Source: Candidatus Omnitrophota bacterium
GTDB taxonomy: Bacteria > Omnitrophota > Gorgyraeia > B26-G9
Reading direction: 5' to 3'
NCBI GenBank assembly: GCA_043805415.1
Contig: JAZDHZ010000007.1
Span: forward strand, 29,786-93,785
Length of the DNA: 64,000 nucleotides
Shown here: piece by piece, positions 370 to 55,072 of the stretch
Position numbering within the stretch: position 1 is the first letter of the stretch
Layout of the letters: every line of letters starts with the position of its first letter
The notes under the pieces: generated by a model
Told to the model about the DNA's origin: nothing
What the model saw: only the letters and a program-made list of their open reading frames with translations
Databases searched by the model: none
Program-made: the position numbers and the translations under genes

Positions 370-501
370 AACGTTTACCTGTTTTCGCAAATCGTAGGGG
401 CGCTGCTTGCCTGCGCCCGGTCATAAATGATTTTCCCAATCTCTGATAATTGTATATTATTGCGGGCCGGGGCAAGCACGGCCCCTACATTATGACCTTG
501 C

Positions 502-1593
502 TTATCTTAATTTCAAAGTCGACAGACTAAACAGCGCCAGAATAATCGCCACAATCAAAAAGCGGAATATTATTTTTGACTCTGCCCAGCCTTTAAGCTG
601 AAAATGATGATGTAATGGGGCCATCAGAAATACTCTTTTTCCGCGCAACCGAAAAGAAAAAACCTGGATAATCACAGACAAAGCTTCGGCAACAAATATT
701 CCTCCCACCAGCACAAGCAATAATTCCTTTTTTATTAAAATAGCCACAGTACCCAAAGCACCGCCCAAAGCTAATGAACCGGTATCGCCCATAAAAATAT
801 CCGCCGGGTGACAATTATACCAAAGAAATCCCAGGCCCGCGCCGAAAATAGCCGCGCAAAAAACCGCAAGTTCGCCAGCTTGCGGCATAAAAATAATCTG
901 CAAATAATTACTAATTACATAGTGTCCGGTTACATAACTCATGCCGCAATAAGTAAGGGCCACGATTAAAACACAGCCTATGGCCAGACCATCTAAACCA
1001 TCAGTCAGGTTTACGGCGTTAGATGTTCCGATTATTACCAACGCGGAAAAAAATACATAAAAAGCGCCTAAGTGAATAATCAGATTTTTAAAAAACGGCA
1101 CATCTAAGCGATCCCCGATATTCGGATCCGCGTACAATAACAATCCGATAGCAATGCCCAAGACCATTTGACCGGCGAGCTTAACGGCAGCAGTTAAACC
1201 CCGGGATTTTTTCCTGGTCAGTTTTATATAATCATCGATAAATCCCACTATTCCTAACCAGACAGTGGAAAATAACGCGATCCAAATATATTTATTCGAT
1301 AAATCCGCCCATAATAAAACCGATAGAACAATAACAAAAATGATCAGGATTCCGCCCATGGTCGGAGTACCTTCTTTAGCTTTATGATGTTCATATAAAG
1401 ATGCCGTATCCTTTGTTTTACGTACCGATTCACCGATATTAAGCTTCTTCAGCATCTTGATAACTGTTTTACCCAGCATCGCGCTTAAAATAAATGCCGT
1501 GATCGCGCAAGCAACAATCCGAAATGTTATATATTTAAATACATTAAAACCAAAGAATACATCTTTTAAAGAATATAAAAAATGATAAAACAT
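502..1593 (-). CDS. mraY: phospho-N-acetylmuramoyl-pentapeptide transferase MraY
   Basis: A 363-aa polytopic membrane protein carrying typical MraY motifs (NAVNLTDGLDGLA, HHHFQ..GW). It lies between murF and murD. Confidence 0.95.
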   Translation of the reverse strand: MFYHFLYSLKDVFFGFNVFKYITFRIVACAITAFILSAMLGKTVIKMLKKLNIGESVRKTKDTASLYEHHKAKEGTPTMGGILIIFVIVLSVLLWADLSNKYIWIALFSTVWLGIVGFIDDYIKLTRKKSRGLTAAVKLAGQMVLGIAIGLLLYADPNIGDRLDVPFFKNLIIHLGAFYVFFSALVIIGTSNAVNLTDGLDGLAIGCVLIVALTYCGMSYVTGHYVISNYLQIIFMPQAGELAVFCAAIFGAGLGFLWYNCHPADIFMGDTGSLALGGALGTVAILIKKELLLVLVGGIFVAEALSVIIQVFSFRLRGKRVFLMAPLHHHFQLKGWAESKIIFRFLIVAIILALFSLSTLKLR

Positions 1594-1603
1594 AAGCGAT
1601 TAC

Positions 1604-3001
1604 CTATTCTTTTAATTTAGGGTTTAAAAAATCAATTATTTGTTCCAGATGCATGCCTCTTGAACCTTTAAGTAATACCACATCATCTTGTTTTCTTATT
1701 TTTTCTAAAACAGCCGCTGCTTCTTGATTAGTTTTACATTGATAAACATCTTCAGTCAACATCCCGCAATCTTTTGCGGCCATAGCCGCGTACTCCGCCT
1801 TTTGGCCAACAGTAATCAGCTTGGAGATCGAACTTTCCGCGATAAGTTTTCCAATCTGCTGATGCGCCTTATTACTGAATCTCCCTAATTCTAACATATC
1901 GCCAAAAACAAAAACTTTTCTTGTTTTACCTTTAATTGATACCAGCGTATTTATCGCCGCCAGGGTAGAATCAGGATTAGCATTATAACAATCGGCAATA
2001 ATACTCACTCCCTGACATTCTATTGTCTGCATGCGCAGCGATACTGGCTGGAATTTCAGCAATTGTTCTCTGATCAACGCATAGTCGATTTTAAAATGCT
2101 GGGCAATGGCTATTGCCGCTAAGGCATTGTACACATTATGCTCGCCTAAAACATTAATCCTAAACGTATACTTTTCATTAACCGTAAAAGCCATCCCATC
2201 AACATGACTGATTATATTTGATCCTTGATAAGCCGAGAGACTTTTTATTCCAAAATCCAGAAGCTCAACGCCAAACTCCTTAACTCTAGTATAAAGCGGC
2301 TTGCAATCAGCATTAACCACTGCCAGACTATTCGGCCCAAGCAGCTCAAGCAGCTCGCATTTCGCCTCTATTATATCAGAAATACTGTTAAAAAACTCTA
2401 GATGCGCGTTTGCCGCATTTGTAATCACCCCGATATCAGGAGCAGCGATAAAAGCCAGTCCCCTGATTTCTCCTTTATGGTTCATCCCCATTTCAATCAC
2501 TGCCGCCTGATGCGTGGCATCCAGCTCAAGCAAAGTCAGCGGCACTCCAATATGATTATTAAACGACCCTTTGCTTTTTAAGACTTTATATTTAGCTTCC
2601 AGAACGCAGGCAATCATATCCTTGGTAGTGGTTTTACCATTTGAGCCTGTCACGGCAATGATCGGGATAGAAAACTTTTTTCTATGGGTTTTAGCCAAAC
2701 AAGCTAAAGCCGCGATTGTATTTTCTACCGCGATAATCGGTTTATTAATCTTATTTAAATCTTTAGTATTTTCTTCGGCCCAGGCACTGGCAAGCAGCAC
2801 AGCTCGCGCACCCTTTTCCAGTGCCGGCAAAATATAGTCATGCCCATTAAAATTATCGCCGCGAATAGCGATAAACAAATTCCCGGGTTTTAAAGTCCGG
2901 GAATCAATCGACACTTGATTGATTTTCGTATTCAGATCAATCGCATCCTGATTAATTAAAACCCCTTGGGTAGCTTCAAGTATTTCTTTGATCGTAAACA
3001 T
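1604..3001 (-). CDS. murF: UDP-MurNAc-tripeptide--D-Ala-D-Ala ligase MurF
   Basis: The Mur ligase P-loop AVTGSNGKTTTKDM and a MurF-like N-terminal substrate domain are present. I trimmed the start to the ATG at 3001 (MFTIKEILEAT), which is preceded by AGGGAG 7 nt upstream. The longer ORF starting at 3049 would include that RBS. Confidence 0.9.
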   Translation of the reverse strand: MFTIKEILEATQGVLINQDAIDLNTKINQVSIDSRTLKPGNLFIAIRGDNFNGHDYILPALEKGARAVLLASAWAEENTKDLNKINKPIIAVENTIAALACLAKTHRKKFSIPIIAVTGSNGKTTTKDMIACVLEAKYKVLKSKGSFNNHIGVPLTLLELDATHQAAVIEMGMNHKGEIRGLAFIAAPDIGVITNAANAHLEFFNSISDIIEAKCELLELLGPNSLAVVNADCKPLYTRVKEFGVELLDFGIKSLSAYQGSNIISHVDGMAFTVNEKYTFRINVLGEHNVYNALAAIAIAQHFKIDYALIREQLLKFQPVSLRMQTIECQGVSIIADCYNANPDSTLAAINTLVSIKGKTRKVFVFGDMLELGRFSNKAHQQIGKLIAESSISKLITVGQKAEYAAMAAKDCGMLTEDVYQCKTNQEAAAVLEKIRKQDDVVLLKGSRGMHLEQIIDFLNPKLKE

Positions 3002-3014
3002 GTTGTTACTCCCT

Positions 3015-3090
3015 ATTGAGTATCGAGTATTGCGTCGTGCGTATTGCACAAAAAAACTCTAATTAATAAACAACGCTGTACTCAAGATGA
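3015..3090. repeat. IR-flanked ~75-nt conserved intergenic element, copy A (upstream of murF)
   Basis: ttgagtat...gtattgcgtCgtgcgtattgcAcaaaaa...aataaacaacGctgtactcaa matches copy B at 54253-54356. Its termini ttgagta/tactcaa are inverted. Internally GTATTGC is a direct repeat. Confidence 0.5.
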
Positions 3091-3356
3091 CCGGCAAATT
3101 TTATGCTCAGTATAAATTTTCTTGCTAAAAACCAGCAAGACCAGCTAAATATAAACTGTGTTTTTGGCTGCTGCGGAACTCACCCAGCTATGGCTGGGCT
3201 CAGACAGTCCTCGCAGCCCAAAGGGTTCCCAAAAACCCAATTCATATTTGCCTAAATTTATAAACTCGCTTAAAAATTTCCCAATCATCTTTCATAAAGT
3301 TCGTTTTTGCTTTATTTTTCTTTCTTTTTTTTTATCTATAGACCATTAGCTATTGA

Positions 3357-4839
3357 CTATTGACCATTTTCCGTCAAGAACTTCCGCACAATTTTTTTGT
3401 CATCAAACGCTATTGTTTTATCTTTAAATATCTGGTATGTCTCATGGCCTTTTCCGGCAATCAGAACAAAATCTCCCTTAACCGCGCTGCGACAGGCTTT
3501 TTGAATTGCCTGATCTCGTTCCGGCACAATTTCATAAGCTTTAAATCCCAGCCCAAACCCGGTTTTTATTTGCTCAATTATTTTAAGCGGCTCTTCTGTG
3601 CGGGGATTATCATTGGTGATAAACAGAAAATCAGAAAGCTTGCTTGCTATCCGGCCCATTAAAAACCGTTTTTCTTTATCTCTGTCTCCGCCGCAGCCAA
3701 AAACAGTAATTATTCGATTCGGGTTTAATTCGCGCAACGCGTTTAATACATTCTTCAGCGCGTCGTCAGTATGCGCATAGTCGACAAAAACATCAAAACC
3801 TTTATCAGTTTTAAGCCGCTCAAGCCTGCCGTTTACCTGCCCCATGGTTTTCAGCGCGGCAGCGATTTTTTCAATTGAGATGCCTTCTTCCCTAGCCGCG
3901 CCAATAGCGGCGAGAAGATTATAAATATTATATTTCCCAATCAGGCTTGTCTGAATCGGATAACGGCCTTGTTCACAAACCAGCATAAAACTAGTCTGAT
4001 CAATGCCTAAAACAATATCTTCCGCCTTAAGCGTAGCATTTTTATCATCAATCGCATAGCTGATTATTTTTGCTTTTGTAAGCTGTTTTAATTTTTGGGC
4101 GTAGGGATCATCACTATTTATAATCGCGGCTGAGCTGGCCGCTAATCCGGAAAACAAACTCGCTTTAGCAGCAAAATATTGTTCCTTAGATTTATGATAA
4201 TCTAAATGGTCATGCGTAAGATTAGTAAAAACCGCTGTTTTAAAATTTATCCCTTCTACCCGGAATTGGTCAAGCGCGTGCGAAGAAACTTCCATGATAT
4301 TATGAGTTAAATTATGGGCAAGCATATGATGCAGCAAATGCTGTATTTTAATCGCGTCCGGAGTTGTATTTACAGCCGGAACAATATGATCGGATATTTT
4401 ATACTGGATGGTGCCGATTACCCCGGAGTTGATTCCATTTTTTTTTTAAGATGTGCTCAATTAAATAGGATATTGTTGTCTTGCCATTTGTCCCGGTAAT
4501 CCCGATTGAGGTTAATTTATTTGAGGGGTTTCCAAAATACTCAGCAGCAAGTTTACCGACACTTATCCTGGCATTGGCAACTTCAATAAACACAGCCGAG
4601 TTGAATAATCCGCTATTTATCGGTTTATTTCCTGTTTCATAAACAATCAGCCTTGCCCCTTTCTCTATCGCTGCTTTAATAAAATCATGGCCATCGCTGC
4701 TCGTGCCTTTTATCGCGAAAAAACAATAATCCGCGGAAACAGTTCTTGAGTCAAGACTCAATCCTTTTAAATCAAAATCATCAAACTCATACTTTTCCGG
4801 GTTTTTGCCCAGGATGTTTAAAGCCTTATAAGCCTTCAC
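3357..4839 (-). pseudogene. murE: UDP-MurNAc-L-Ala-D-Glu--meso-DAP ligase MurE, interrupted by a frameshift at a T9-10 homopolymer near 4439-4448 (two ORFs, 4399..4839 and 3357..4337)
   Basis: The N-terminal ORF has the MurE leader and the P-loop GITGTNGKTT, then goes out of frame right after ...EHILKKK. The downstream ORF carries the rest of MurE, including the DNPR motif (meso-DAP specificity) and the C-terminal domain. Continuous MurE sequence (NGINSGVIGTIQYKISDHIV...) is readable across the junction in the alternate frame. Confidence 0.8.
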
Positions 4840-4872
4840 AGGATTTCCTTTGTTTAATATATTTAACCGCGG

Positions 4873-6612
4873 TTAGTCTGTTATGCTGGTCGTGTTTTTT
4901 TGATTAGTTGACGGTTTTTGATCAGCAATGTTGTTCTGCATCGGCACATCCATATACTTTAATACTTTTTCGGCAATATTTTTAAATATCGGAGCACAAA
5001 CAGTGCCGCCATAATAAAACGGCTTTGGTTCGTCAAAGACAACGGCAATAACTACCTTGGGGTTCTCTGCCGGAGCAAAACCAATAAAAGAAGCAATAAA
5101 TTTATTGTGAGAATAGCCTTCACCGGCAACTACTTTTTGCGCGGTACCGGTTTTCCCGGCAGTTGAATATCCCTTAACTTTCGCGCTTTTACCAGTCCCA
5201 TTCTCAACAACCCCTTGCAATATATCGCGCATTTTTATCGCTGTCTTTGCGCTGATAATTCTTGCCGCCGGCTCTGGCTGAATATCTTTTATAATTTCAT
5301 TTTTACTGTCGATTATCTTACTAACTAGATGCGGATTAACAAGATATCCGCCATTGGCGATAACTGCCATAGCGCGGGCCATTTGAATTACGGTTACCCC
5401 GATTTCATGTCCAATCGGAAGGGCAGCAATCGAGAGTTTTGACCATTGTTCCAGCGGTCTAAAGAACCCCTCAACTTCACCCGGAAGATCAATATCCGTC
5501 TTTTGACCAAAACCAAATTTTTTAATATATTTATATAATAAAGCCGGTCCCAGCTTTTGGGCAATTTTTACAGTTCCGATATTGCTTGATTTTTCGATAA
5601 CCTCGACAAAACTAAGATTGCCATGCGGGGTATGATCATGTAAAATATGCCGGGATACGGTATATTCGCCGTTTTCACAAAAAAATACATCATCTAAAGC
5701 AACAACATTTTCTTCTAAAACCGCGCTGGCGGTAATAATTTTAAAAGTAGATCCCGGCTCAAAATAATCACTAACTGCCCTATTTCGTTTCGCGTCATCC
5801 ATTGCTTGGCCGAAACAATTTAAATCATAGCCTGGACGGTTTACCAGCGCGTAAATTTCTCCATTTTCCGGATTCATTATAATCACCGAAGCGCCGACGG
5901 CTTTACTTTTTTCAAATCCCGCGTCTAATTCTTGTTCGGCAATATGCTGAATAACCGCGTCAAGGGTTAATACAATATTATGCCCATTAATTTCCGGAAT
6001 ATATTCATATTCAAAAGCCGGCATAATCCGCTGCTTCGCGTCGCGGACTAATGATCTTTTGCCGGCCTGGCCTCTTAAATATTTATCATAGATTAATTCC
6101 ACTCCGGAAAGACCATTTTCATCAATACCGGCAAAACCAACAACATGTGCCGCAAGGCCGGCATTCGGATAATATCTTTTATTTTCAGTTAATAAAGACA
6201 CTCCTTTGATTTTTTCCTGTTTTACCCGTAAGGCGAGATCATCTTCAATCCTTCTTTTTACCCAGATAAAAGACTTATCGCGTTTTAGTTTTTCCAATAA
6301 AACATTGTAATCAAGTTCTAATATTGATGAAAGCTTTAAAGCGACTTCTTCTTTATTTTCGATTTCCCGCGGAACAGCATATACTGAAAAAACTTTTAAG
6401 CTTAAAGCAAATGTTTTTAAATTTCGATCAAAAATAAAGCCCCTTTGCGGGAAAAGTTTCAAAGTAAGATTATGCTGCGAATCAGCAAGTTTGATATAAT
6501 CACTGTAGTTTATGACTTGAATATAAAGCAAACGGAAAAAAATAACCAGTAGGATAAAAAGGTAAGAGAAAAACACTATTGCAAGCCGAAGCTTTTGCGG
6601 CCTTTTGTACAC
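4873..6612 (-). CDS. ftsI: peptidoglycan D,D-transpeptidase FtsI / class B PBP
   Basis: There is an N-terminal TM anchor and a PBP dimerisation region. The transpeptidase motifs STFK (GSTFKIITAS), SSN (KSSNIGT) and KTGT (GKTGTAQK) are all present. The dcw position between ftsL and murE fits. Confidence 0.9.
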   Translation of the reverse strand: MYKRPQKLRLAIVFFSYLFILLVIFFRLLYIQVINYSDYIKLADSQHNLTLKLFPQRGFIFDRNLKTFALSLKVFSVYAVPREIENKEEVALKLSSILELDYNVLLEKLKRDKSFIWVKRRIEDDLALRVKQEKIKGVSLLTENKRYYPNAGLAAHVVGFAGIDENGLSGVELIYDKYLRGQAGKRSLVRDAKQRIMPAFEYEYIPEINGHNIVLTLDAVIQHIAEQELDAGFEKSKAVGASVIIMNPENGEIYALVNRPGYDLNCFGQAMDDAKRNRAVSDYFEPGSTFKIITASAVLEENVVALDDVFFCENGEYTVSRHILHDHTPHGNLSFVEVIEKSSNIGTVKIAQKLGPALLYKYIKKFGFGQKTDIDLPGEVEGFFRPLEQWSKLSIAALPIGHEIGVTVIQMARAMAVIANGGYLVNPHLVSKIIDSKNEIIKDIQPEPAARIISAKTAIKMRDILQGVVENGTGKSAKVKGYSTAGKTGTAQKVVAGEGYSHNKFIASFIGFAPAENPKVVIAVVFDEPKPFYYGGTVCAPIFKNIAEKVLKYMDVPMQNNIADQKPSTNQKNTTSITD

Positions 6613-6676
6613 GTTAGCAGATAGATCCTTATTTGATGAATGTTAAATTAAATTTAAAATTATTGAGCGGGAAAAA

Positions 6677-7051
6677 TTATCTTCTTAGATCTGAAGCGGC
6701 TTGCGCTTTAGGAACAAGTGCATCCAAAAGATTTGTTTTCCAATTCAATCTCGTTGTTTTTGCCAGTTGCGGCTGATTCTTCCGAATCACCCTGACTTGT
6801 GCCACTGCCGCAGGTTCAGGAAAACTTAAATCCATATTGTTCTGTTTCAGCATGCTAGCCAAATACTGGGGTGACTTCAAACTCATATTATTATATAATA
6901 AACTCTGGTTCTGGTCAATCATCTGACTCAAGCATTTTTCTTTATCTCTTAAACTATAACTCAGTTTTACAATTTCTACCTGCTGCCTAACATAAGCTAA
7001 GCAAATAGAGGTACTTATCACTGCGCAGATTAAGACACTTTTCAATCTCAT
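6677..7051 (-). CDS. ftsL: cell division protein FtsL-like (small bitopic membrane protein)
   Basis: A 124-aa protein with a single N-terminal TM segment followed by a coiled-coil-like region. The slot between rsmH and ftsI is the conserved FtsL position. Confidence 0.6.
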   Translation of the reverse strand: MRLKSVLICAVISTSICLAYVRQQVEIVKLSYSLRDKEKCLSQMIDQNQSLLYNNMSLKSPQYLASMLKQNNMDLSFPEPAAVAQVRVIRKNQPQLAKTTRLNWKTNLLDALVPKAQAASDLRR

Positions 7052-7076
7052 ATATTTCCCTTTTAGTAATAAAGAA

Positions 7077-7964
7077 CTATATTTTTTCAGCTACACGCAA
7101 CTTCGCGCTACGGCTTTTCCGATTTTCCGCTAACTCTGGTTCGCCAGGCACAAGCGGTCTCTTGGTGATTATTTTTAAAACTCCTTTTTTGGCCTGAGCT
7201 CTAAATTCATGCTTAACTATTCTGTCTTCTAAAGAATGGAACGATATTACGCAGATTCTTCCGCCCGGACTAAGCAAATCAATCGCGTCAATAAGCCCGG
7301 ACTGTAATACTTCCAGCTCCCGGTTAACCGCGATTCTTAAAGCCATAAATGTTTTAGTCGCGGGATGGATTTTTTTATATCTTTCTTTAACCGGAAGCGC
7401 CGCGATAACAATATCGGCTAATTCCTGAGTCGAGGTAATTACTTTATTATTCCGCTGGCTGACAATTCTCCGGGCGATTCTCCGGCTGAATCTTTCTTCG
7501 CCGAACTGAAAGATTAAATTGGCGATTTCTTCTTCCGAGAGATTATTAATCAGATCAAAAGCCGTTATTTGGGCTTTTTTATCCATGCGCATATTCAGCG
7601 GCCCGTCAAACTGAAAGCTGAAACCGCGCTCCGGATCAGTAAACTGCAAGTTGGAAACTCCCAGGTCAAAAAGGACGCCATCCATGGCGTTTAAACCCAG
7701 GCTTTGAATCACATCCCTGATACCTTGAAAGTTTCGGTTAACCAGCGTAAACGATCCGTCAAAACAAGAAAGACGCCGGCGGCTAAGACTTAGGGCATCA
7801 TCATCCTGATCAATGCCGATAAGCTGACCGCCCGGCGTTATCTTTCTCAATATGCCTTCACTGTGCCCTGCTTCCCCCACTGTACAATCAACGATCACCT
7901 TCCCTGGCAAAAGCTGCAAGTACGATAAAACTTCATTAAGCATCACAGGTACGTGTTGGCTCAT
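7077..7964 (-). CDS. rsmH: 16S rRNA (cytosine1402-N4)-methyltransferase RsmH (MraW)
   Basis: The product starts MSQHVPVMLNEVL... and contains GxAGHS and a SAM-MTase fold, which match RsmH. I trimmed the start from the longer ORF (8045) to the ATG at 7964, in line with RsmH N-termini. Confidence 0.9.
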   Translation of the reverse strand: MSQHVPVMLNEVLSYLQLLPGKVIVDCTVGEAGHSEGILRKITPGGQLIGIDQDDDALSLSRRRLSCFDGSFTLVNRNFQGIRDVIQSLGLNAMDGVLFDLGVSNLQFTDPERGFSFQFDGPLNMRMDKKAQITAFDLINNLSEEEIANLIFQFGEERFSRRIARRIVSQRNNKVITSTQELADIVIAALPVKERYKKIHPATKTFMALRIAVNRELEVLQSGLIDAIDLLSPGGRICVISFHSLEDRIVKHEFRAQAKKGVLKIITKRPLVPGEPELAENRKSRSAKLRVAEKI

Positions 7965-7986
7965 TTCAGTTTCTTCTGGTTTATCA

Positions 7987-8436
7987 TCACTCCAGACCCA
8001 TGAGTTTTTCCGCAGTATCCTCAAAGGTCTCTCGAGTATTTTCATAAAATTCCTTCCAGCTATGTTTGCTCCAGATTTCTATTCTGTTAGCAACACCGAT
8101 AATTAAAACATCCTTGTCAATCTGGGCAAACTCTTTGAGATATTGCGGAATCAGAACCCTTCCTTGGGCATCGCAGATAATTTCGCTGGCACCGGAAAAG
8201 AATAAGCGATTAAACCGTCTGGCTTCAGCTTTGGTAAACGACAAAGCCTTAAATTTCTGTTCCTGGCGCCGCCATTCATCTTCCGTGAACACAAATAAAC
8301 ATCCGTCAAGCCCACGGGTAATAAAAAACTTTTCCCCGAAATTATTCTTAACTGCCTCGCGAAACTTGGCAGGAATAATAACCCGGTTTTTTTTATCTAA
8401 TGAATGTTCAAACTCTCCGTAGAACATATACCCCAC
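7987..8436 (-). CDS. mraZ: transcriptional regulator MraZ
   Basis: The duplicated MraZ/SpoVT-AbrB motifs DxKxRVxIPAKFR and RxxIPxxLxEFA are present and the protein (MFYGEFEHSLDKKNRVIIPAKFRE...) is about 145 aa. It is the first gene of the dcw cluster. The start is ambiguous: GTG at 8436 or ATG at 8427. Confidence 0.9.
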   Translation of the reverse strand: MGYMFYGEFEHSLDKKNRVIIPAKFREAVKNNFGEKFFITRGLDGCLFVFTEDEWRRQEQKFKALSFTKAEARRFNRLFFSGASEIICDAQGRVLIPQYLKEFAQIDKDVLIIGVANRIEIWSKHSWKEFYENTRETFEDTAEKLMGLE

Positions 8437-8638
8437 TTTCTACCACTTTTCTCCACATAAACAAATATACTTTATTTTCCAGTGCATGTCAACTAAAAAA
8501 CAGAATTATTTTAAAAAATATTTAATTATACTGTTTGCGATATTGGAAGTGAAGATTTACCTCAAGATATTGCGCTTGGCCTTAAAACTAAAAAAATCAT
8601 CCGGCATGGCTTGACATCATGCGCTTTGGGGATACCAC

Positions 8639-8667
8639 TTGACTTTCAGATATTAACTTGATAAAAT
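8639..8667 (+). promoter_or_regulatory. sigma70-like promoter: -35 TTGACT (8639-8644), 17-bp spacer, -10 TAAAAT (8662-8667)
   Basis: This is a near-consensus hexamer pair with optimal spacing. It points at the downstream SD (AGAGGAG, 8693-8701) and small ORF, then at the rSAM gene. A second TTGACA lies 25 bp upstream. Confidence 0.45.
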
Positions 8668-8706
8668 AATAAACAGACAAAATGTTGTTAAAGAGAGGAG
8701 ACTCCA

Positions 8707-8790
8707 TTGAAGCTGAAAAAAATTAATAAAACCACGGAAAAGAAAAATTTACTATCTCGTTTCTGCCGTTCCGGTAGAGTCTTGTGGTAG
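8707..8790 (+). CDS. 27-codon small ORF (TTG start) (M)KLKKINKTTEKKNLLSRFCRSGRVLW, a candidate RiPP precursor peptide
   Basis: A strong SD (AAGAGAGGAG) sits 5 nt upstream. It is the only open frame here. It lies between a consensus promoter and the RRE-rSAM-SPASM gene about 160 bp downstream. The product has a Lys-rich N-terminal half and a Cys/Trp-containing C-terminal half. Confidence 0.3.
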   Translation: MKLKKINKTTEKKNLLSRFCRSGRVLW

Positions 8791-8951
8791 AAATCAATTT
8801 ACGCCCAGAATAAACACCTGTTAATTTTTACCAGATTCGCTTTCCGATCAATCTCCCGCATATTTTAATGAGATTGAAGCAAGCAGACTGGAATGTGTTT
8901 TACATTTAACAATACTCTACAAGATATTTTTATCATTAAGCGCAGAAACCA

Positions 8952-13215: not shown

Positions 13216-13595
13216 AATTACCTATCCGCTCCTATTATTTTTTGTAGAAATTGGCAAATACCGCTTGAATCACAAATTCCACATCCGAACGTGTCATTTT
13301 CGGATAAAAAACTAATGAGATCAGCTGGATTTCAATAGTACGGCAATCGCCTTCAATTCATTATCATATGTTTGCGGCCGATAAAAATCAAGCGGCAAAA
13401 TGTACTGCTAAAATCAACTTCTATATTATACCGCATTTCCGCTCTATAAACTTGCATAAACTGAAAATTAAGCTTAATCTTCGACACACCGCGACACGTT
13501 TAATTGGAACCAGAATCGCAGCATATCGCGCAAGGCACAAACCTTATACAAAGATGTCCGCGTTGAGCCTCATGTTTTGACGGTATTATCCTTTG

Positions 13596-17968: not shown

Positions 17969-18475
17969 GAAAACTTCTCCTAAAACTTTCCGTTTAGGCC
18001 CCTGCAGCGACAGGGCATCAATTCCGCAAGTGACCTACGTGAACGCATCCTCAGCGGCGCGCGTTTTCACATCCGGAGAAAATAAGATTATCTCATACAG
18101 CGGATTATCCGTTACCCGTGCAGAATCACGGCAGCGCAGCAGCGGAAGCAAACAGCCCCTCTTACCTTTTATTTTCATTCGAGCCGGGGCAGACAGAGCA
18201 CGGCAACAACACCACAATAGAACCTATCAGCGTAATCACGGAAATTATTATCCCTAGATAAAAAAGCACCGGAACGAAATGCAATACTATCGTTTGCTCG
18301 CCCCTTTGGGAAATAGGGAGAGAAATCAACAAAGCCGTAAAAAGATATACCTGTTATCATCCTGCGCTTTTAGAAAAAAGGCCGTCATCAGCGGAAAAAA
18401 TCTGTTTGAAAACCTCACGGCAACCATCGCTTCCCTCATTCCCTCGCGACAGGAAAACAATCGCCTCGGTATATT

Positions 18476-20041: not shown

Positions 20042-20265
20042 GCTGTTCTACCTCACAATACCCGATTAGAGGGAGCGACCATGCTGAGATTTTTATTCAT
20101 CTTAACTATCGTCATCCCATCGACTAACGTCATAAAAACACTTATGCTAAAACATCTTTCAAGACACGCAATTATAGTGCTGAGTTGGCATTATAGCATA
20201 GCCCTCTTAATAAAGCAAGCCGGCAAACAGCCTCTCTATTTTTTGCTTCATTTCTTTGCAGCGAT

Positions 20266-53060: not shown

Positions 53061-54215
53061 TTATTGCCATGACTGAGCGTAAATATTCAGTAAATTCTCT
53101 GCCGTGGTCTGCCAATTATACAGTTCTTCCGCTCTTTGGCGCGCTTTTTTGGCTAATCTCCGGCGCAAAGGTTCATCCTCCAAAAGTTTAATTATCCCGC
53201 GGGCTAAGTCCTCGGAATCTCCGGGTAAAGTAAGGATTCCGGCTCCGCCAAGCATCCGCTTTACTTCCCCAACATCACTGGCGACAATCGGCTTACCGCT
53301 GGCTAAATACTCGGCGATTTTAAGCGGGCTTTTACACTGGGTAATGTCATTATCCTCAAAACAAGCCACGCAAATATCAGTTGCCGCTAAGTACAGCGGC
53401 GTTTCTTGATGGCTGATTGCCCCGGTAAAAATAATCTGCTTAGCCATATCCATATCCTTAGCCATTTTTTTTAATTCCTCCAAACGGTAACCGCCGCCGA
53501 TAATAAAAAAAATTATTCCTTTCATCTGATTGCTGATCATTTTGGCCGCGCGGATAAACTGCTCCGCGTATTGGCCGCCGTGCAATTGGCCGAGATAGCT
53601 GATGATCGGGCCATGAATATTATACTTTTCTCTGATCCGGACAGGAGAAATATCCGGATTAAATAAATCAAGATCCGCGCCCACCGGAGCCATGGCGATT
53701 TTATCTGGCTTAATGCCGTATTTAATACACTCCTGCTTCAGGCGCTGGCTGGAAACCGAGATAGTGTCGCAAAGATTCGGGATATAGCGCTCTAAAGCCC
53801 AAAGAAAACTGCCGGCCAAACGCGGCTGTTTAGCGCAATAGTAAAATATTTTTATTTCCCAGTCATCCCAGTCATAATGTACTGGCTTATTATTTATAAA
53901 ACCCGCGAGCAAAGCCGGCAATGCCGCGTAATAAAAACACTTTTGGACATGAATTATATCCGCCCATCTGGCCTGAGCGCGGACACGGCCGATATTCTTA
54001 AAATAATTATTAATTCCCAGCCTCCGGCTTAAAGGAATATATTCAATGCCTTGGATTGTAAAATCAGCCTGCTGCTCCTGATATTCCAAAGGAAAATAAA
54101 TTATTTTCACGCTATGGCCTTTCCGCTTAAATTCCTGGGCGATTTTTTTAATCCGGATCGTCCAGGGCTCTTTGCGCGAAAACAAATCATGGGGATGAAT
54201 CATTAATATATTCAT
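53061..54215 (-). CDS. glycosyltransferase family 4 (GT-B fold)
   Basis: GT4 motifs are present (GKPIVASDVGEVKRML, EX7E-type). It is the first gene of the 54215->34005 operon. Confidence 0.8.
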   Translation of the reverse strand: MNILMIHPHDLFSRKEPWTIRIKKIAQEFKRKGHSVKIIYFPLEYQEQQADFTIQGIEYIPLSRRLGINNYFKNIGRVRAQARWADIIHVQKCFYYAALPALLAGFINNKPVHYDWDDWEIKIFYYCAKQPRLAGSFLWALERYIPNLCDTISVSSQRLKQECIKYGIKPDKIAMAPVGADLDLFNPDISPVRIREKYNIHGPIISYLGQLHGGQYAEQFIRAAKMISNQMKGIIFFIIGGGYRLEELKKMAKDMDMAKQIIFTGAISHQETPLYLAATDICVACFEDNDITQCKSPLKIAEYLASGKPIVASDVGEVKRMLGGAGILTLPGDSEDLARGIIKLLEDEPLRRRLAKKARQRAEELYNWQTTAENLLNIYAQSWQ

Positions 54216-55072
54216 AAAAATTCCTTAATGTCTTTATCACTATACGCTTTTAAGTATTGCGTTGTGAGTCGTGCGTATTGCGCAAAAAGAACTAACAAAT
54301 AAACAACTAATATGCTTTTTCGCTTTTTCTAACCGCTATTCGCTGTACTCAATACTATTTTCTTTGTGACTTTGTGTCCTTGTAACCATCGTATCGAAGG
54401 CGGTCCGGAATCAATCATTTTGGCTCATTCTCGCATTACATCCTGTAATGCTCCGAGGATGAATCTCTGATTTTGTCAGTCCTATCAAAATCAGGCTTCA
54501 AACCCGCCTAAATAATTATTCCTGCCCTCCAAAGTGTACAGTTATTAATTACGAATTTTTAGTTTTTACCATTAGCCATCGACCATCATCCATTAGCCCT
54601 ACGCTTTTACTTTGTGACCTGGTGACTTTACAAACTTTATAAACTGTTTTGTCTTGTGTCCTTGCGTAGAGCAACTTTTTCTAAAGATGATCATCATCTT
54701 AAAAACAAATTAATAAAGAACTAAACGCTATTCGCAGATAGCTAATGACTAATGGTCACTAGTCTATTCGCCAGGCGAAAATTCTCTTTTAGCGGCGCTT
54801 TAAATGAGAGCCTGACTTACTGAGTGTTAGCGAAGTCAAGTCAGCCTGCTCGAATTTAGTCCGAAATAGCTGCGACCTAGCAGATATTTTCGGAATCATT
54901 AGCGAGAACGCGCGGCTGAGCCTGTACGATGCAGGCTCAGGCTTAGCTAAAAGATGTGTTTTTGCCTGTCAAACAACTCTTGCGTGTCATTAATTTTTAA
55001 CACGTTAACCTATTACCCCTCAACCTGCTTTTCTGCTTTGGCTATAAGTCATGCGCTATGCGCTAAACGCTA
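54216..55072. other. 857-bp ORF-free, locally GC-richer inter-operon region with multiple stable hairpins and short motif repeats (possible ncRNA or regulatory region)
   Basis: No ORF of 60 aa or more lies on either strand. There are three clear hairpins: gcattacatcctgtaatgc (54433-54451), ctgattttgtcagtcctatcaaaatcag (54467-54494) and gagcctgtacgatgcaggctc (54918-54938). Recurring motifs include ccattag/ctaatgg and ttgtgtccttg. Confidence 0.4.
54253..54356. repeat. IR-flanked conserved intergenic element, copy B (upstream of the GT4 gene 53061..54215), with a ~28-nt insertion relative to copy A
   Basis: agtattgcgttgtgagtcgtgcgtattgcgcaaaaaga...aataaacaac...cgctgtactcaatact. The termini agtattg/caatact are inverted. 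The core shared with copy A covers about 60 nt. Confidence 0.5.

Follow-up and report, generated by a model that had tools for sequence, protein, structure and literature searches.

Probable composite heptamer-array repeats upstream of murF and a glycosyltransferase gene in an Omnitrophota genome

Does a short sequence shared by the upstream regions of murF and of a distant glycosyltransferase gene mark a common regulatory site, or is it a repeat that has come to lie at both junctions? The question arises in a 64,000-nucleotide stretch of a Candidatus Omnitrophota bacterium (assembly GCA_043805415.1, contig JAZDHZ010000007.1), hereafter called the window. Its two copies of the element are designated A, located 5' of murF, and B, located 5' of a gene for a family 4 glycosyltransferase (GT4) in a glycan cluster. 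An initial annotation of the DNA had proposed either a promoter/operator tying peptidoglycan synthesis to glycan synthesis or a small mobile repeat resembling a miniature inverted-repeat transposable element (MITE). A shared operator, if true, would be a neat regulatory link in an uncultivated phylum, and evidence against it spares the locus a false annotation. On balance, A and B are probably copies of a lineage-specific, non-coding composite repeat, not a regulatory site; the repeat would be one of a set of modules that, in this clade, have colonised junctions of operons whose genes are otherwise tightly packed.

Two related copies built on heptamers

Direct alignment of A (about 3013-3085) and B (about 54247-54352), which lie on the same strand, reveals similarity far above chance. 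As the initial annotation had stated, the two look-alike copies have a common core, in which three shared blocks align. The 21-nt block GTCGTGCGTATTGCRCAAAAA has two matches in the window at three or fewer mismatches and none in 100 shuffles. A gapped pattern combining the blocks (33-34 nt) matches only A and B in the window, where none would be expected, and an nhmmer profile of A and B run over the whole window recovers the two as the sole full copies, with E values of 4e-17 and 7e-15. The 14-nt GTCGTGCGTATTGC, identical in A and B, lies inside the 21-nt block, which varies only at its R position. Between the blocks, B is longer than A by 34 nt (54308-54341).

The placement described initially is also borne out. 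Both copies have the same orientation and lie just 5' of a minus-strand start codon, and all genes adjoining them are on the minus strand. The start of murF is assigned to the ATG at 3001, not to the GTG at 3049, because of the ribosome-binding site (RBS) GGGAG and a 465-aa homologue (P0001). The heptamer array of A stops 11 nt upstream of this start codon. The GT4 gene starts with the ATG at 54215, and the shared core of B stops 37 nt upstream of it.

On the gene strand, the element opens with a short antisense heptamer stretch (TTGAGTAC AGCG), continues as an A/T-rich linker with a terminal T-run, and closes with degenerate heptamers arrayed in sense orientation up to the RBS. In copy A these parts appear as TTGAGTACAGCG, TTGTTTATTAATTAGAG-T7-GT and five heptamers, followed by GGAG-N7-ATG. 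Arrays of the GCAATAC type, counted with a defined heptamer unit set, number 19 in the Omnitrophota loci, 13 of them sense and six antisense, against 0.2 in the shuffled window; those led by a T-run are mostly in sense orientation 5' of genes. The period-7 signal is raised in the A- and B-bearing spacers, and not in coding DNA or other long intergenic DNA. Autocorrelation at lags 7 and 14 is 0.33/0.32 in the spacer at 3002-3356 and 0.33/0.31 in that at 54216-55072, compared with 0.26 in coding DNA and 0.20-0.28 in four other spacers longer than 200 nt (8046-8951, 13216-13595, 17969-18475 and 20042-20265), short A/T-rich spacers reaching up to 0.30-0.33.

Two internal features of the initial description hold only in part. 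The direct repeat GTATTGC is present in both copies, but its spacing is unequal, with starts at 3027 and 3041 in A (14 nt) and at 54254 and 54275 in B (21 nt). Inverted termini likewise exist (TTGAGTA/TACTCAA in A and AGTATTG/CAATACT in B), but they are merely 7 nt long and occupy non-homologous positions in the two copies. Folding predictions for either strand of A and B score no better than those for shuffled sequences (z -1.6 and -1.8), and the pairing partners differ between the copies.

Filled and empty junctions in related genomes

Homologues of MurF assign the window to a Candidatus Omnitrophota metagenome-assembled genome (MAG), P0001 being 100% identical, and reveal five relatives (with 80, 74, 72 and 71% MurF identity; related loci are given L numbers). 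In the closest relative, L001, murE and murF are 4 nt apart; the spacer is 355 nt long in the window, and its length in L002, L004 and L006 is 248, 805 and 324 nt, respectively. Every long spacer finishes in a T-run and heptamers followed by the same RBS, and the interiors are differing mosaics; the heptamer end is the only part that the murF junctions of L002, L004 and L006 have in common with the window. Heptamers at the murF leader number two in L006, three in L004, and five in both L002 and the window, while the murF-proximal 24-42 nt are 88-100% conserved in L002 and L006, where synonymous sites are saturated. The window insert is flanked by direct copies of TCAATAG (3013-3019 and 3357-3363), the latter of which provides the murE stop codon; TCAATAG is itself a heptamer unit.

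The second junction is that upstream of GT4. The spacer between this gene and the preceding radical S-adenosylmethionine (rSAM) gene is 857 nt long in the window, but only 19 nt, with no element, in L033 (GT4 90% identical at the amino acid level) and L035 (80%). In L034 (84%) and L036 (82%), a module designated Y lies 5' of GT4 and the B core is missing. Comparison with L036 identifies an empty and a filled site: the 20-mer composed of AATAGCGGTTAG and CGTATAGT is unbroken in L036, whereas its halves are 82 nt apart in the window. The B core interrupts a heptamer array left intact in L036. Any duplication at this insert amounts to at most AG (2 nt) or an imperfect AAAAGCG. As the 82-nt insert does not include block 1 of B, A and B are not one unit inserted twice but related mosaics. 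Given spacers of 4 and 19 nt in relatives, A and B form the gene-proximal ends of mosaic insertions of 355 and 857 nt, respectively. The element is thus not conserved at orthologous positions, being missing from both junctions in the closest relatives.

Further modules accompany A and B (Table 1). Module W, at positions 231-278 of the murE-murF spacer, aligns with L034 142-188. The 5' flank of A (W and block 1) matches the region upstream of GT4 in L034 and not B, which shows exchange between the two kinds of site. Modules X1 to X3 recur at 82-94% identity in the mraY-murD spacers of L002 and L006, in the murE-murF spacer of L004, in L010, and 5' of an rSAM-SPASM gene in L033, mostly in the opposite orientation relative to genes. 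Identity to relatives reaches 91-94% for modules X and Y, against a third-codon identity of only 0.50-0.59 in the genes of the same relatives, so that the modules are conserved far better than synonymous sites.

Beyond these junctions, scans of public data for the T-run and heptamer motif returned few true relatives, all in Omnitrophota-like contigs and in front of diverse genes (Table 1). In the ssb-rpsR spacer of L029, antisense heptamers, A/T linker, sense heptamers and RBS follow one another as in A, and this spacer folds significantly (z -3.8). The shared 21-mer runs on into homologous heptamers in four other contigs. A scan of a genome collection without the source MAG, made with TTTTGYGCAATACGCACGAC, gave two true matches and one chance match in Sphingobacterium. 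Of the 22 loci returned by a looser metagenome scan, 18 lay in coding sequence on unrelated contigs and matched by chance. Scans of viral contigs for the A/B motif, Y and X1 gave no matches, so there is no sign of a phage origin.

Table 1. Positions of the repeat copies, their parts and accompanying modules in the window and, where indicated, in related loci.
Feature	Position	Strand	Remarks
Entire murE-murF spacer, mosaic insertion	3002..3356	-	Missing in L001 (4-nt spacer)
Copy A, sense array GCAATAC GCACGAC GCAATAC TCGATAC TCAATAG	3013..3047	-	Abuts murF RBS GGGAG
Copy A, A/T-rich linker with terminal T-run, TTGTTTATTAATTAGAGTTTTTTTGT	3048..3073	-	In common with B alone
Copy A, block 1, TTGAGTACAGCG	3074..3085	-	Antisense-type heptamers; 5' arm of weak inverted repeat
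Module W	3079..3126	-	5' of and overlapping A block 1; 81% identical to L034 5' of GT4 orthologue
Entire rSAM-GT4 spacer, mosaic of X1, X2, X3, Y, B	54216..55072	-	Missing in L033, L035
B core, 82 nt (linker, T-run, heptamers)	54247..54328	-	Splits 20-mer AATAGCGGTTAG/CGTATAGT
Copy B, sense array GCAATAC GCACGAC TCACAAC GCAATAC	54254..54281	-	
Copy B, block 1, TTGAGTACAGCG	54341..54352	-	Outside 82-nt insert; native 12-mer 54329-54340 between
Shared block GTCGTGCGTATTGCRCAAAAA	A 3034-3054; B 54268-54288		Written on + strand
Shared block AATAAACAAC	A 3065-3074; B 54298-54307		Written on + strand
Shared block CGCTGTACTCAA	A 3074-3085; B 54341-54352		Written on + strand
Third, partial degenerate linker copy GCGAATAGCGTTTAG TTCTTTATTAATTTGTTTTT	54700..54735	-	Without GCAATAC heptamers
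Module Y, about 128 nt	54401-54528; L034 1-123; L036 1-83; L004 7-134	- (window)	
Module X3	54742-54801	-	GC-rich hairpin
Module X2	54798-54901	-	GC-rich hairpin
Module X1	54900-54967	-	GC-rich hairpin
T-run and heptamer relative	L008/L020		5' of gcvT
T-run and heptamer relative	L010/L024		5' of GGDEF gene
T-run and heptamer relative	L014		5' of pyridine-nucleotide oxidoreductase (Pyr_redox) gene
T-run and heptamer relative	L029		Both sides of rpsR
Inverted bracketing arrays	L001 5491-5525 and 5668-5702; L006 2662-2689 and 2935-2969		
Conserved non-coding module, about 150 nt	L002 2822-2960; L006 2745-2880; L008 5915-6050		murE-murF spacers (L002, L006); 5' of gcvT (L008)

Dispersed repeat, leader, mobile element or operator

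The A/B repeat is best read as one module among an intergenic set that comprises W, X1 to X3, Y and several flavours of heptamer array. In different genomes, these modules occupy differing junctions and occur in both orientations. Heptamer arrays would grow and shrink by slippage, and the microhomology that they provide could turn them into landing pads. Short modules may then be copied between arrays via recombination, template switching or some transposition activity, a mechanism for which the insertion of small dispersed repeats (SDRs) into heptamer arrays of Nostocaceae would be an analogous process. Its position between co-oriented genes makes it probable that the element is transcribed in the leader of the downstream gene. 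The G-poor sense array beside the RBS would be unstructured in the transcript, and expression, if affected at all, would be affected in a generic way (through mRNA processing, stability or ribosome access), with no specific regulatory link between murF and the glycan cluster.

Several observations weigh against a dispersed repeat. Only two full copies are documented, both in the 64-kb window. An exact 20-mer occurs once per genome in two related genomes of the genome collection, and a strict public-metagenome pattern that includes the A/T linker gave no matches, so the family would have to be low-copy or fast-diverging. No transposase was found among the 30 window open reading frames scanned, nor any clear target-site duplication or convincing terminal inverted repeats, and mobility is for this reason inferred from presence and absence only. 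The short spacers of L001, L033 and L035 could possibly reflect loss instead of gain. Moreover, a start codon lies directly 3' of A, of B and of most T-run-led arrays, which share the sense orientation, and a selected leader or promoter element would look just like the conserved murF-proximal segment.

These last two observations lead to the alternative that survives best, namely that the element is a functional 5' leader. As a transcribed, selected mRNA feature, it could offer ribosomes an unstructured, C/A-rich standby site beside the RBS, or it could form a hairpin whose processing by RNase III separates the downstream gene from the upstream cistron. Pairing of the sense array with antisense heptamers in the RNase III version would resemble the hmw1A 5' untranslated region (UTR) of Haemophilus influenzae, which provides a precedent (PMC12721329). 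The sense orientation of A and B, 11 and 37 nt from their start codons, and of most T-run-led arrays agrees with a leader, as does the 88-100% identity of the murF-proximal segment in L002 and L006 despite saturated synonymous sites. So do the significant fold of the similarly built L029 spacer and the inverted heptamer arrays that flank the entire spacer in L004 and L006. However, A and B fold no better than shuffles and do so with differing partners, the closest relatives do without the element, heptamer number and content vary freely, and six of the 19 arrays are antisense. A leader function is thus unlikely, although it retains a real chance of being correct.

A broader scenario is unlikely, and we put it forward only tentatively. 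The clade may possess a transposase-independent copy-and-paste process like that of cyanobacterial SDRs, with at least Y as a structured, selected RNA acting in cis on envelope genes and A/B as a leader that restores expression. Arrays at operon junctions would serve as landing pads, between which the 50-80-nt A/B core, X1 to X3, W and Y would be shuffled, and the A/B sense array would supply an unstructured standby or processing leader for a gene severed from its operon.

A classical MITE, that is, a non-autonomous deletion derivative of an insertion sequence whose terminal inverted repeats are recognised by a transposase acting in trans, would share some of the properties described above. 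The B core compared with L036, and the spacers missing in L001, L033 and L035, represent filled and empty orthologous sites; short inverted termini exist; the motif is found at different loci; and the contigs of relatives end at the neighbouring modules, suggestive of multicopy repeats. In contrast, the 7-nt inverted termini are not homologous between A and B, and there is no unambiguous target-site duplication, with 2 nt at most at the B insert. None of the 30 window open reading frames (ORFs) scanned encodes a transposase, two copies only were found, the viral contigs contain no match, and the position of B block 1 outside the insert means that A and B were not inserted twice as one unit. 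A MITE in this strict sense is very unlikely. The small mobile repeat proposed initially is broadly right, given the filled and empty sites, the varied junctions and the occurrence in both orientations, but the element is better described as a module of a heptamer-array mosaic.

The other initial proposal was a shared operator, in which a dimeric regulator bound to the GTATTGC direct repeat would co-regulate murF and the GT4 glycan cluster. Its appeal lies in the common orientation of the copies close to start codons, in the identical 14-nt GTCGTGCGTATTGC, and in the 8-bp palindrome TTGCGCAA, which is found in B and several relatives; in addition, the 857-nt structured insertion may leave GT4 in need of a promoter of its own. 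Other observations argue against it. In the closest relatives (L001, L033 and L035), neither orthologous junction carries the element, and L036 has Y without the B core. The half-sites have no fixed geometry, being 14 nt apart in A and 21 nt in B, and no -35/-10 hexamers are shared. Scans for promoters and terminators, made with a tool that covers sigma-70-like promoters, detected nothing common to A and B, the sole promoter-like match in B lying within B-specific sequence. By eye, the core did not fit the consensus of sigma-54 (GG-N10-GC), extracytoplasmic function sigma factors (AAC-N16-17-CGT) or Bacteroidota promoters (-33/-7). In A the palindrome TTGCGCAA is imperfect, and the window shows no enrichment of it (five found, 3.1 expected). 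Finally, the associated genes do not form a coherent set, as the same motif precedes gcvT, a GGDEF gene, the Pyr_redox gene and rpsR. The operator is consequently highly improbable, failing on conservation, geometry, promoter content and gene association.

Chance similarity of two A/T-rich intergenic regions, which the low copy number and low-complexity surroundings might suggest, is next to impossible in view of the shuffles, the nhmmer E values and the homologous extension of the 21-mer in four other contigs.

Known repeat families and accompanying features

The preferred reading, a lineage-specific composite repeat, invites comparison with known intergenic repeats. Short tandemly repeated repetitive sequences (STRRs) of cyanobacteria are intergenic 7-bp tandem arrays, often hairpin-forming within operons, that vary among relatives and have no known function (PMC2670836, PMC4692102). 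The A/B arrays likewise consist of intergenic 7-bp tandem units, a periodicity seen in two spacers, and their copy number and sequence vary between relatives at the same locus (two to five units at murF). They differ in their host, which belongs to the Omnitrophota, in the Planctomycetes-Verrucomicrobia-Chlamydiae (PVC) group, and in being degenerate, STRR units being near-perfect. Units such as CTAATGG, TCAATAG, ATGAGTT and GACAAGG-like sequences here resemble cyanobacterial STRR units. For the GCAATAC/GCACGAC flavour with its conserved T-run leader, the literature search found no description.

SDRs are reportedly often inserted inside tandem heptamer arrays. The 82-nt B core, which interrupts an array intact in L036, resembles them in this respect, albeit in a single case with thin support. 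The SDRs of Nostocaceae (Elhai et al., 2008, Genome Res 18:1484, cited as ref 43 in PMC3116915; see also PMC5861425) are, like the present element, very short and non-coding, have no transposase of their own and are recognised by filled and empty orthologous sites. SDRs, however, have palindromic cores of 21-27 nt and hundreds of copies, whereas the unit described here is 50-80 nt long and non-palindromic, with two full copies documented, and there is no sequence similarity.

Repetitive extragenic palindromic (REP) sequences, bacterial interspersed mosaic elements (BIMEs) and REP doublets forming hairpins (REPINs) of proteobacteria are modular mosaics of intergenic motifs with hairpin modules and a proposed effect on mRNA stability (PMC3116915, PMC3733652). 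As in these families, modules here vary in order and orientation in operon intergenic regions. The A/B unit, in contrast, has no GTAG/CGTC-tagged palindrome, and no REP-associated tyrosine transposase (RAYT) was seen. Pneumococcal BOX elements are also modular intergenic mosaics with hairpin modules, for which an effect on mRNA stability has been proposed, and the same variation in order and orientation applies to them. The heptamer periodicity found here is not a feature of REP, BIME or BOX.

A different system is offered by the (ATCTTTC)n arrays in the 5' UTRs of hmw1A and hmw2A, where the array pairs with a complementary arm, RNase III cleaves the resulting long hairpin, and expression is tuned by the number of repeats (PMC12721329, PMC8262952). 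A and B similarly place a heptamer array in a 5' leader, if transcription is presumed, but hmw repeats are perfect and phase-variable, whereas those of A and B are degenerate and have no significant predicted hairpin. With MITEs, the element has in common that it is short and non-coding, with inverted ends and presence or absence at orthologous sites. It departs from them in its 7-nt, non-homologous ends, in having neither a clear target duplication nor a parent insertion sequence, and in that the halves of B are parted by native sequence.

These comparisons leave A/B best described as a new family of dispersed repeats, STRR/SDR/BIME-like and outside known sequence families. No match to Rfam was obtained at gathering score for the window and 11 related loci, and permissive thresholds yielded only chance-level matches (E above 1). 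Reports of such repeats in Omnitrophota were absent from the literature searched, and to our knowledge this is the first heptamer-array mosaic repeat family described in the phylum. Its likeness to cyanobacterial STRRs and SDRs in an unrelated phylum bears on the origin and spread of such arrays. Such repeats break assemblies and split operons, and hence matter for MAG quality and operon prediction in this Omnitrophota group.

Module Y, which has no Rfam match, is a candidate for a new structured RNA or a structured mobile module. It lies 5' of GT4 in three lineages and 5' of murE in L004, and is 92% identical to relatives with a third-codon identity of about 0.55. Its predicted fold has three stems, a closing stem and two hairpins. 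The third hairpin occurs with three alternative, mutually compensating stems (GCAUUAC/GUAAUGC, GUCCCGC/GCGGGAC and ACCUUAC/GUAAGGU), with six covarying pairs and an invariant AGGAU loop. The contigs of L004, L034 and L036 all stop at or within Y, as assemblers do at multicopy repeats, which suggests that Y is multicopy. With its compensatory base changes, Y is the more interesting by-product of the analysis and merits separate study.

Other sequences were noted in the spacers of the cell-wall genes. In relatives, whole spacers are bracketed by inverted heptamer arrays, for example GCTAATGGTCGATAG and CTATCGACCATTAGC, whose pairing would enclose the spacer in a long stem. The T-run and sense array come directly after this stem in L004 and L006. 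A module 82% conserved between the window (3220-3316, minus strand) and L004 (2313-2408) starts with ATGAAAGATGAYTGGGAAATTTTTAAGC, includes a mini-ORF (MKDDWEIFK...) and leads in the window into a long GC-rich hairpin at 3167-3218. This module may represent the remains of a gene, a leader peptide or a further repeat module; for the mini-ORF itself, a leader peptide or gene remnant was considered and set aside, as its frames diverge between genomes and the GC-rich hairpin follows. The conserved non-coding module of about 150 nt (CGGGTAAAGGTAAATGGTAA...GGTTACGGTTAA...TTAACCATAACC), which has several internal complementary segments, has no copy in the window. Within the mraY-murD spacer (394-488, minus strand), two GTAG-headed, GC-rich copies (GTAGGGGCCGTGCTTGCC... 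and ...GGCAAGCAGCGCCCCTAC) lie in inverted orientation with about 40 nt between them and constitute a REPIN-like doublet unlike the heptamer mosaics. At the same junction, relatives have X modules or TAGCGNT heptamer arrays instead.

Pfam assigns rsmH, ftsL, ftsI, murE, murF and mraY to a division and cell wall (dcw) cluster at 502-8045. The very large envelope-glycan cluster in the rest of the window (8952-60918), nearly all on one strand, is exceptionally rich in radical-SAM enzymes and encodes at least 13 of them, many with B12-binding or SPASM domains, among them a 1399-aa protein and a radical-SAM-GT2 fusion. Interspersed genes encode GT2 and GT4 glycosyltransferases, Wzy, PMT_2, asparagine synthase and carbamoyltransferase. 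In the window, a 1-nt frameshift within an A10 homopolymer (4438-4447) divides murE (3357-4839, minus strand) into ORFs at 4399-4839 and 3357-4337. An error of sequencing or assembly is the probable cause, although murE could be a genuine pseudogene or contain a slippery site; in relatives, murE is intact and encodes 492-496 aa.

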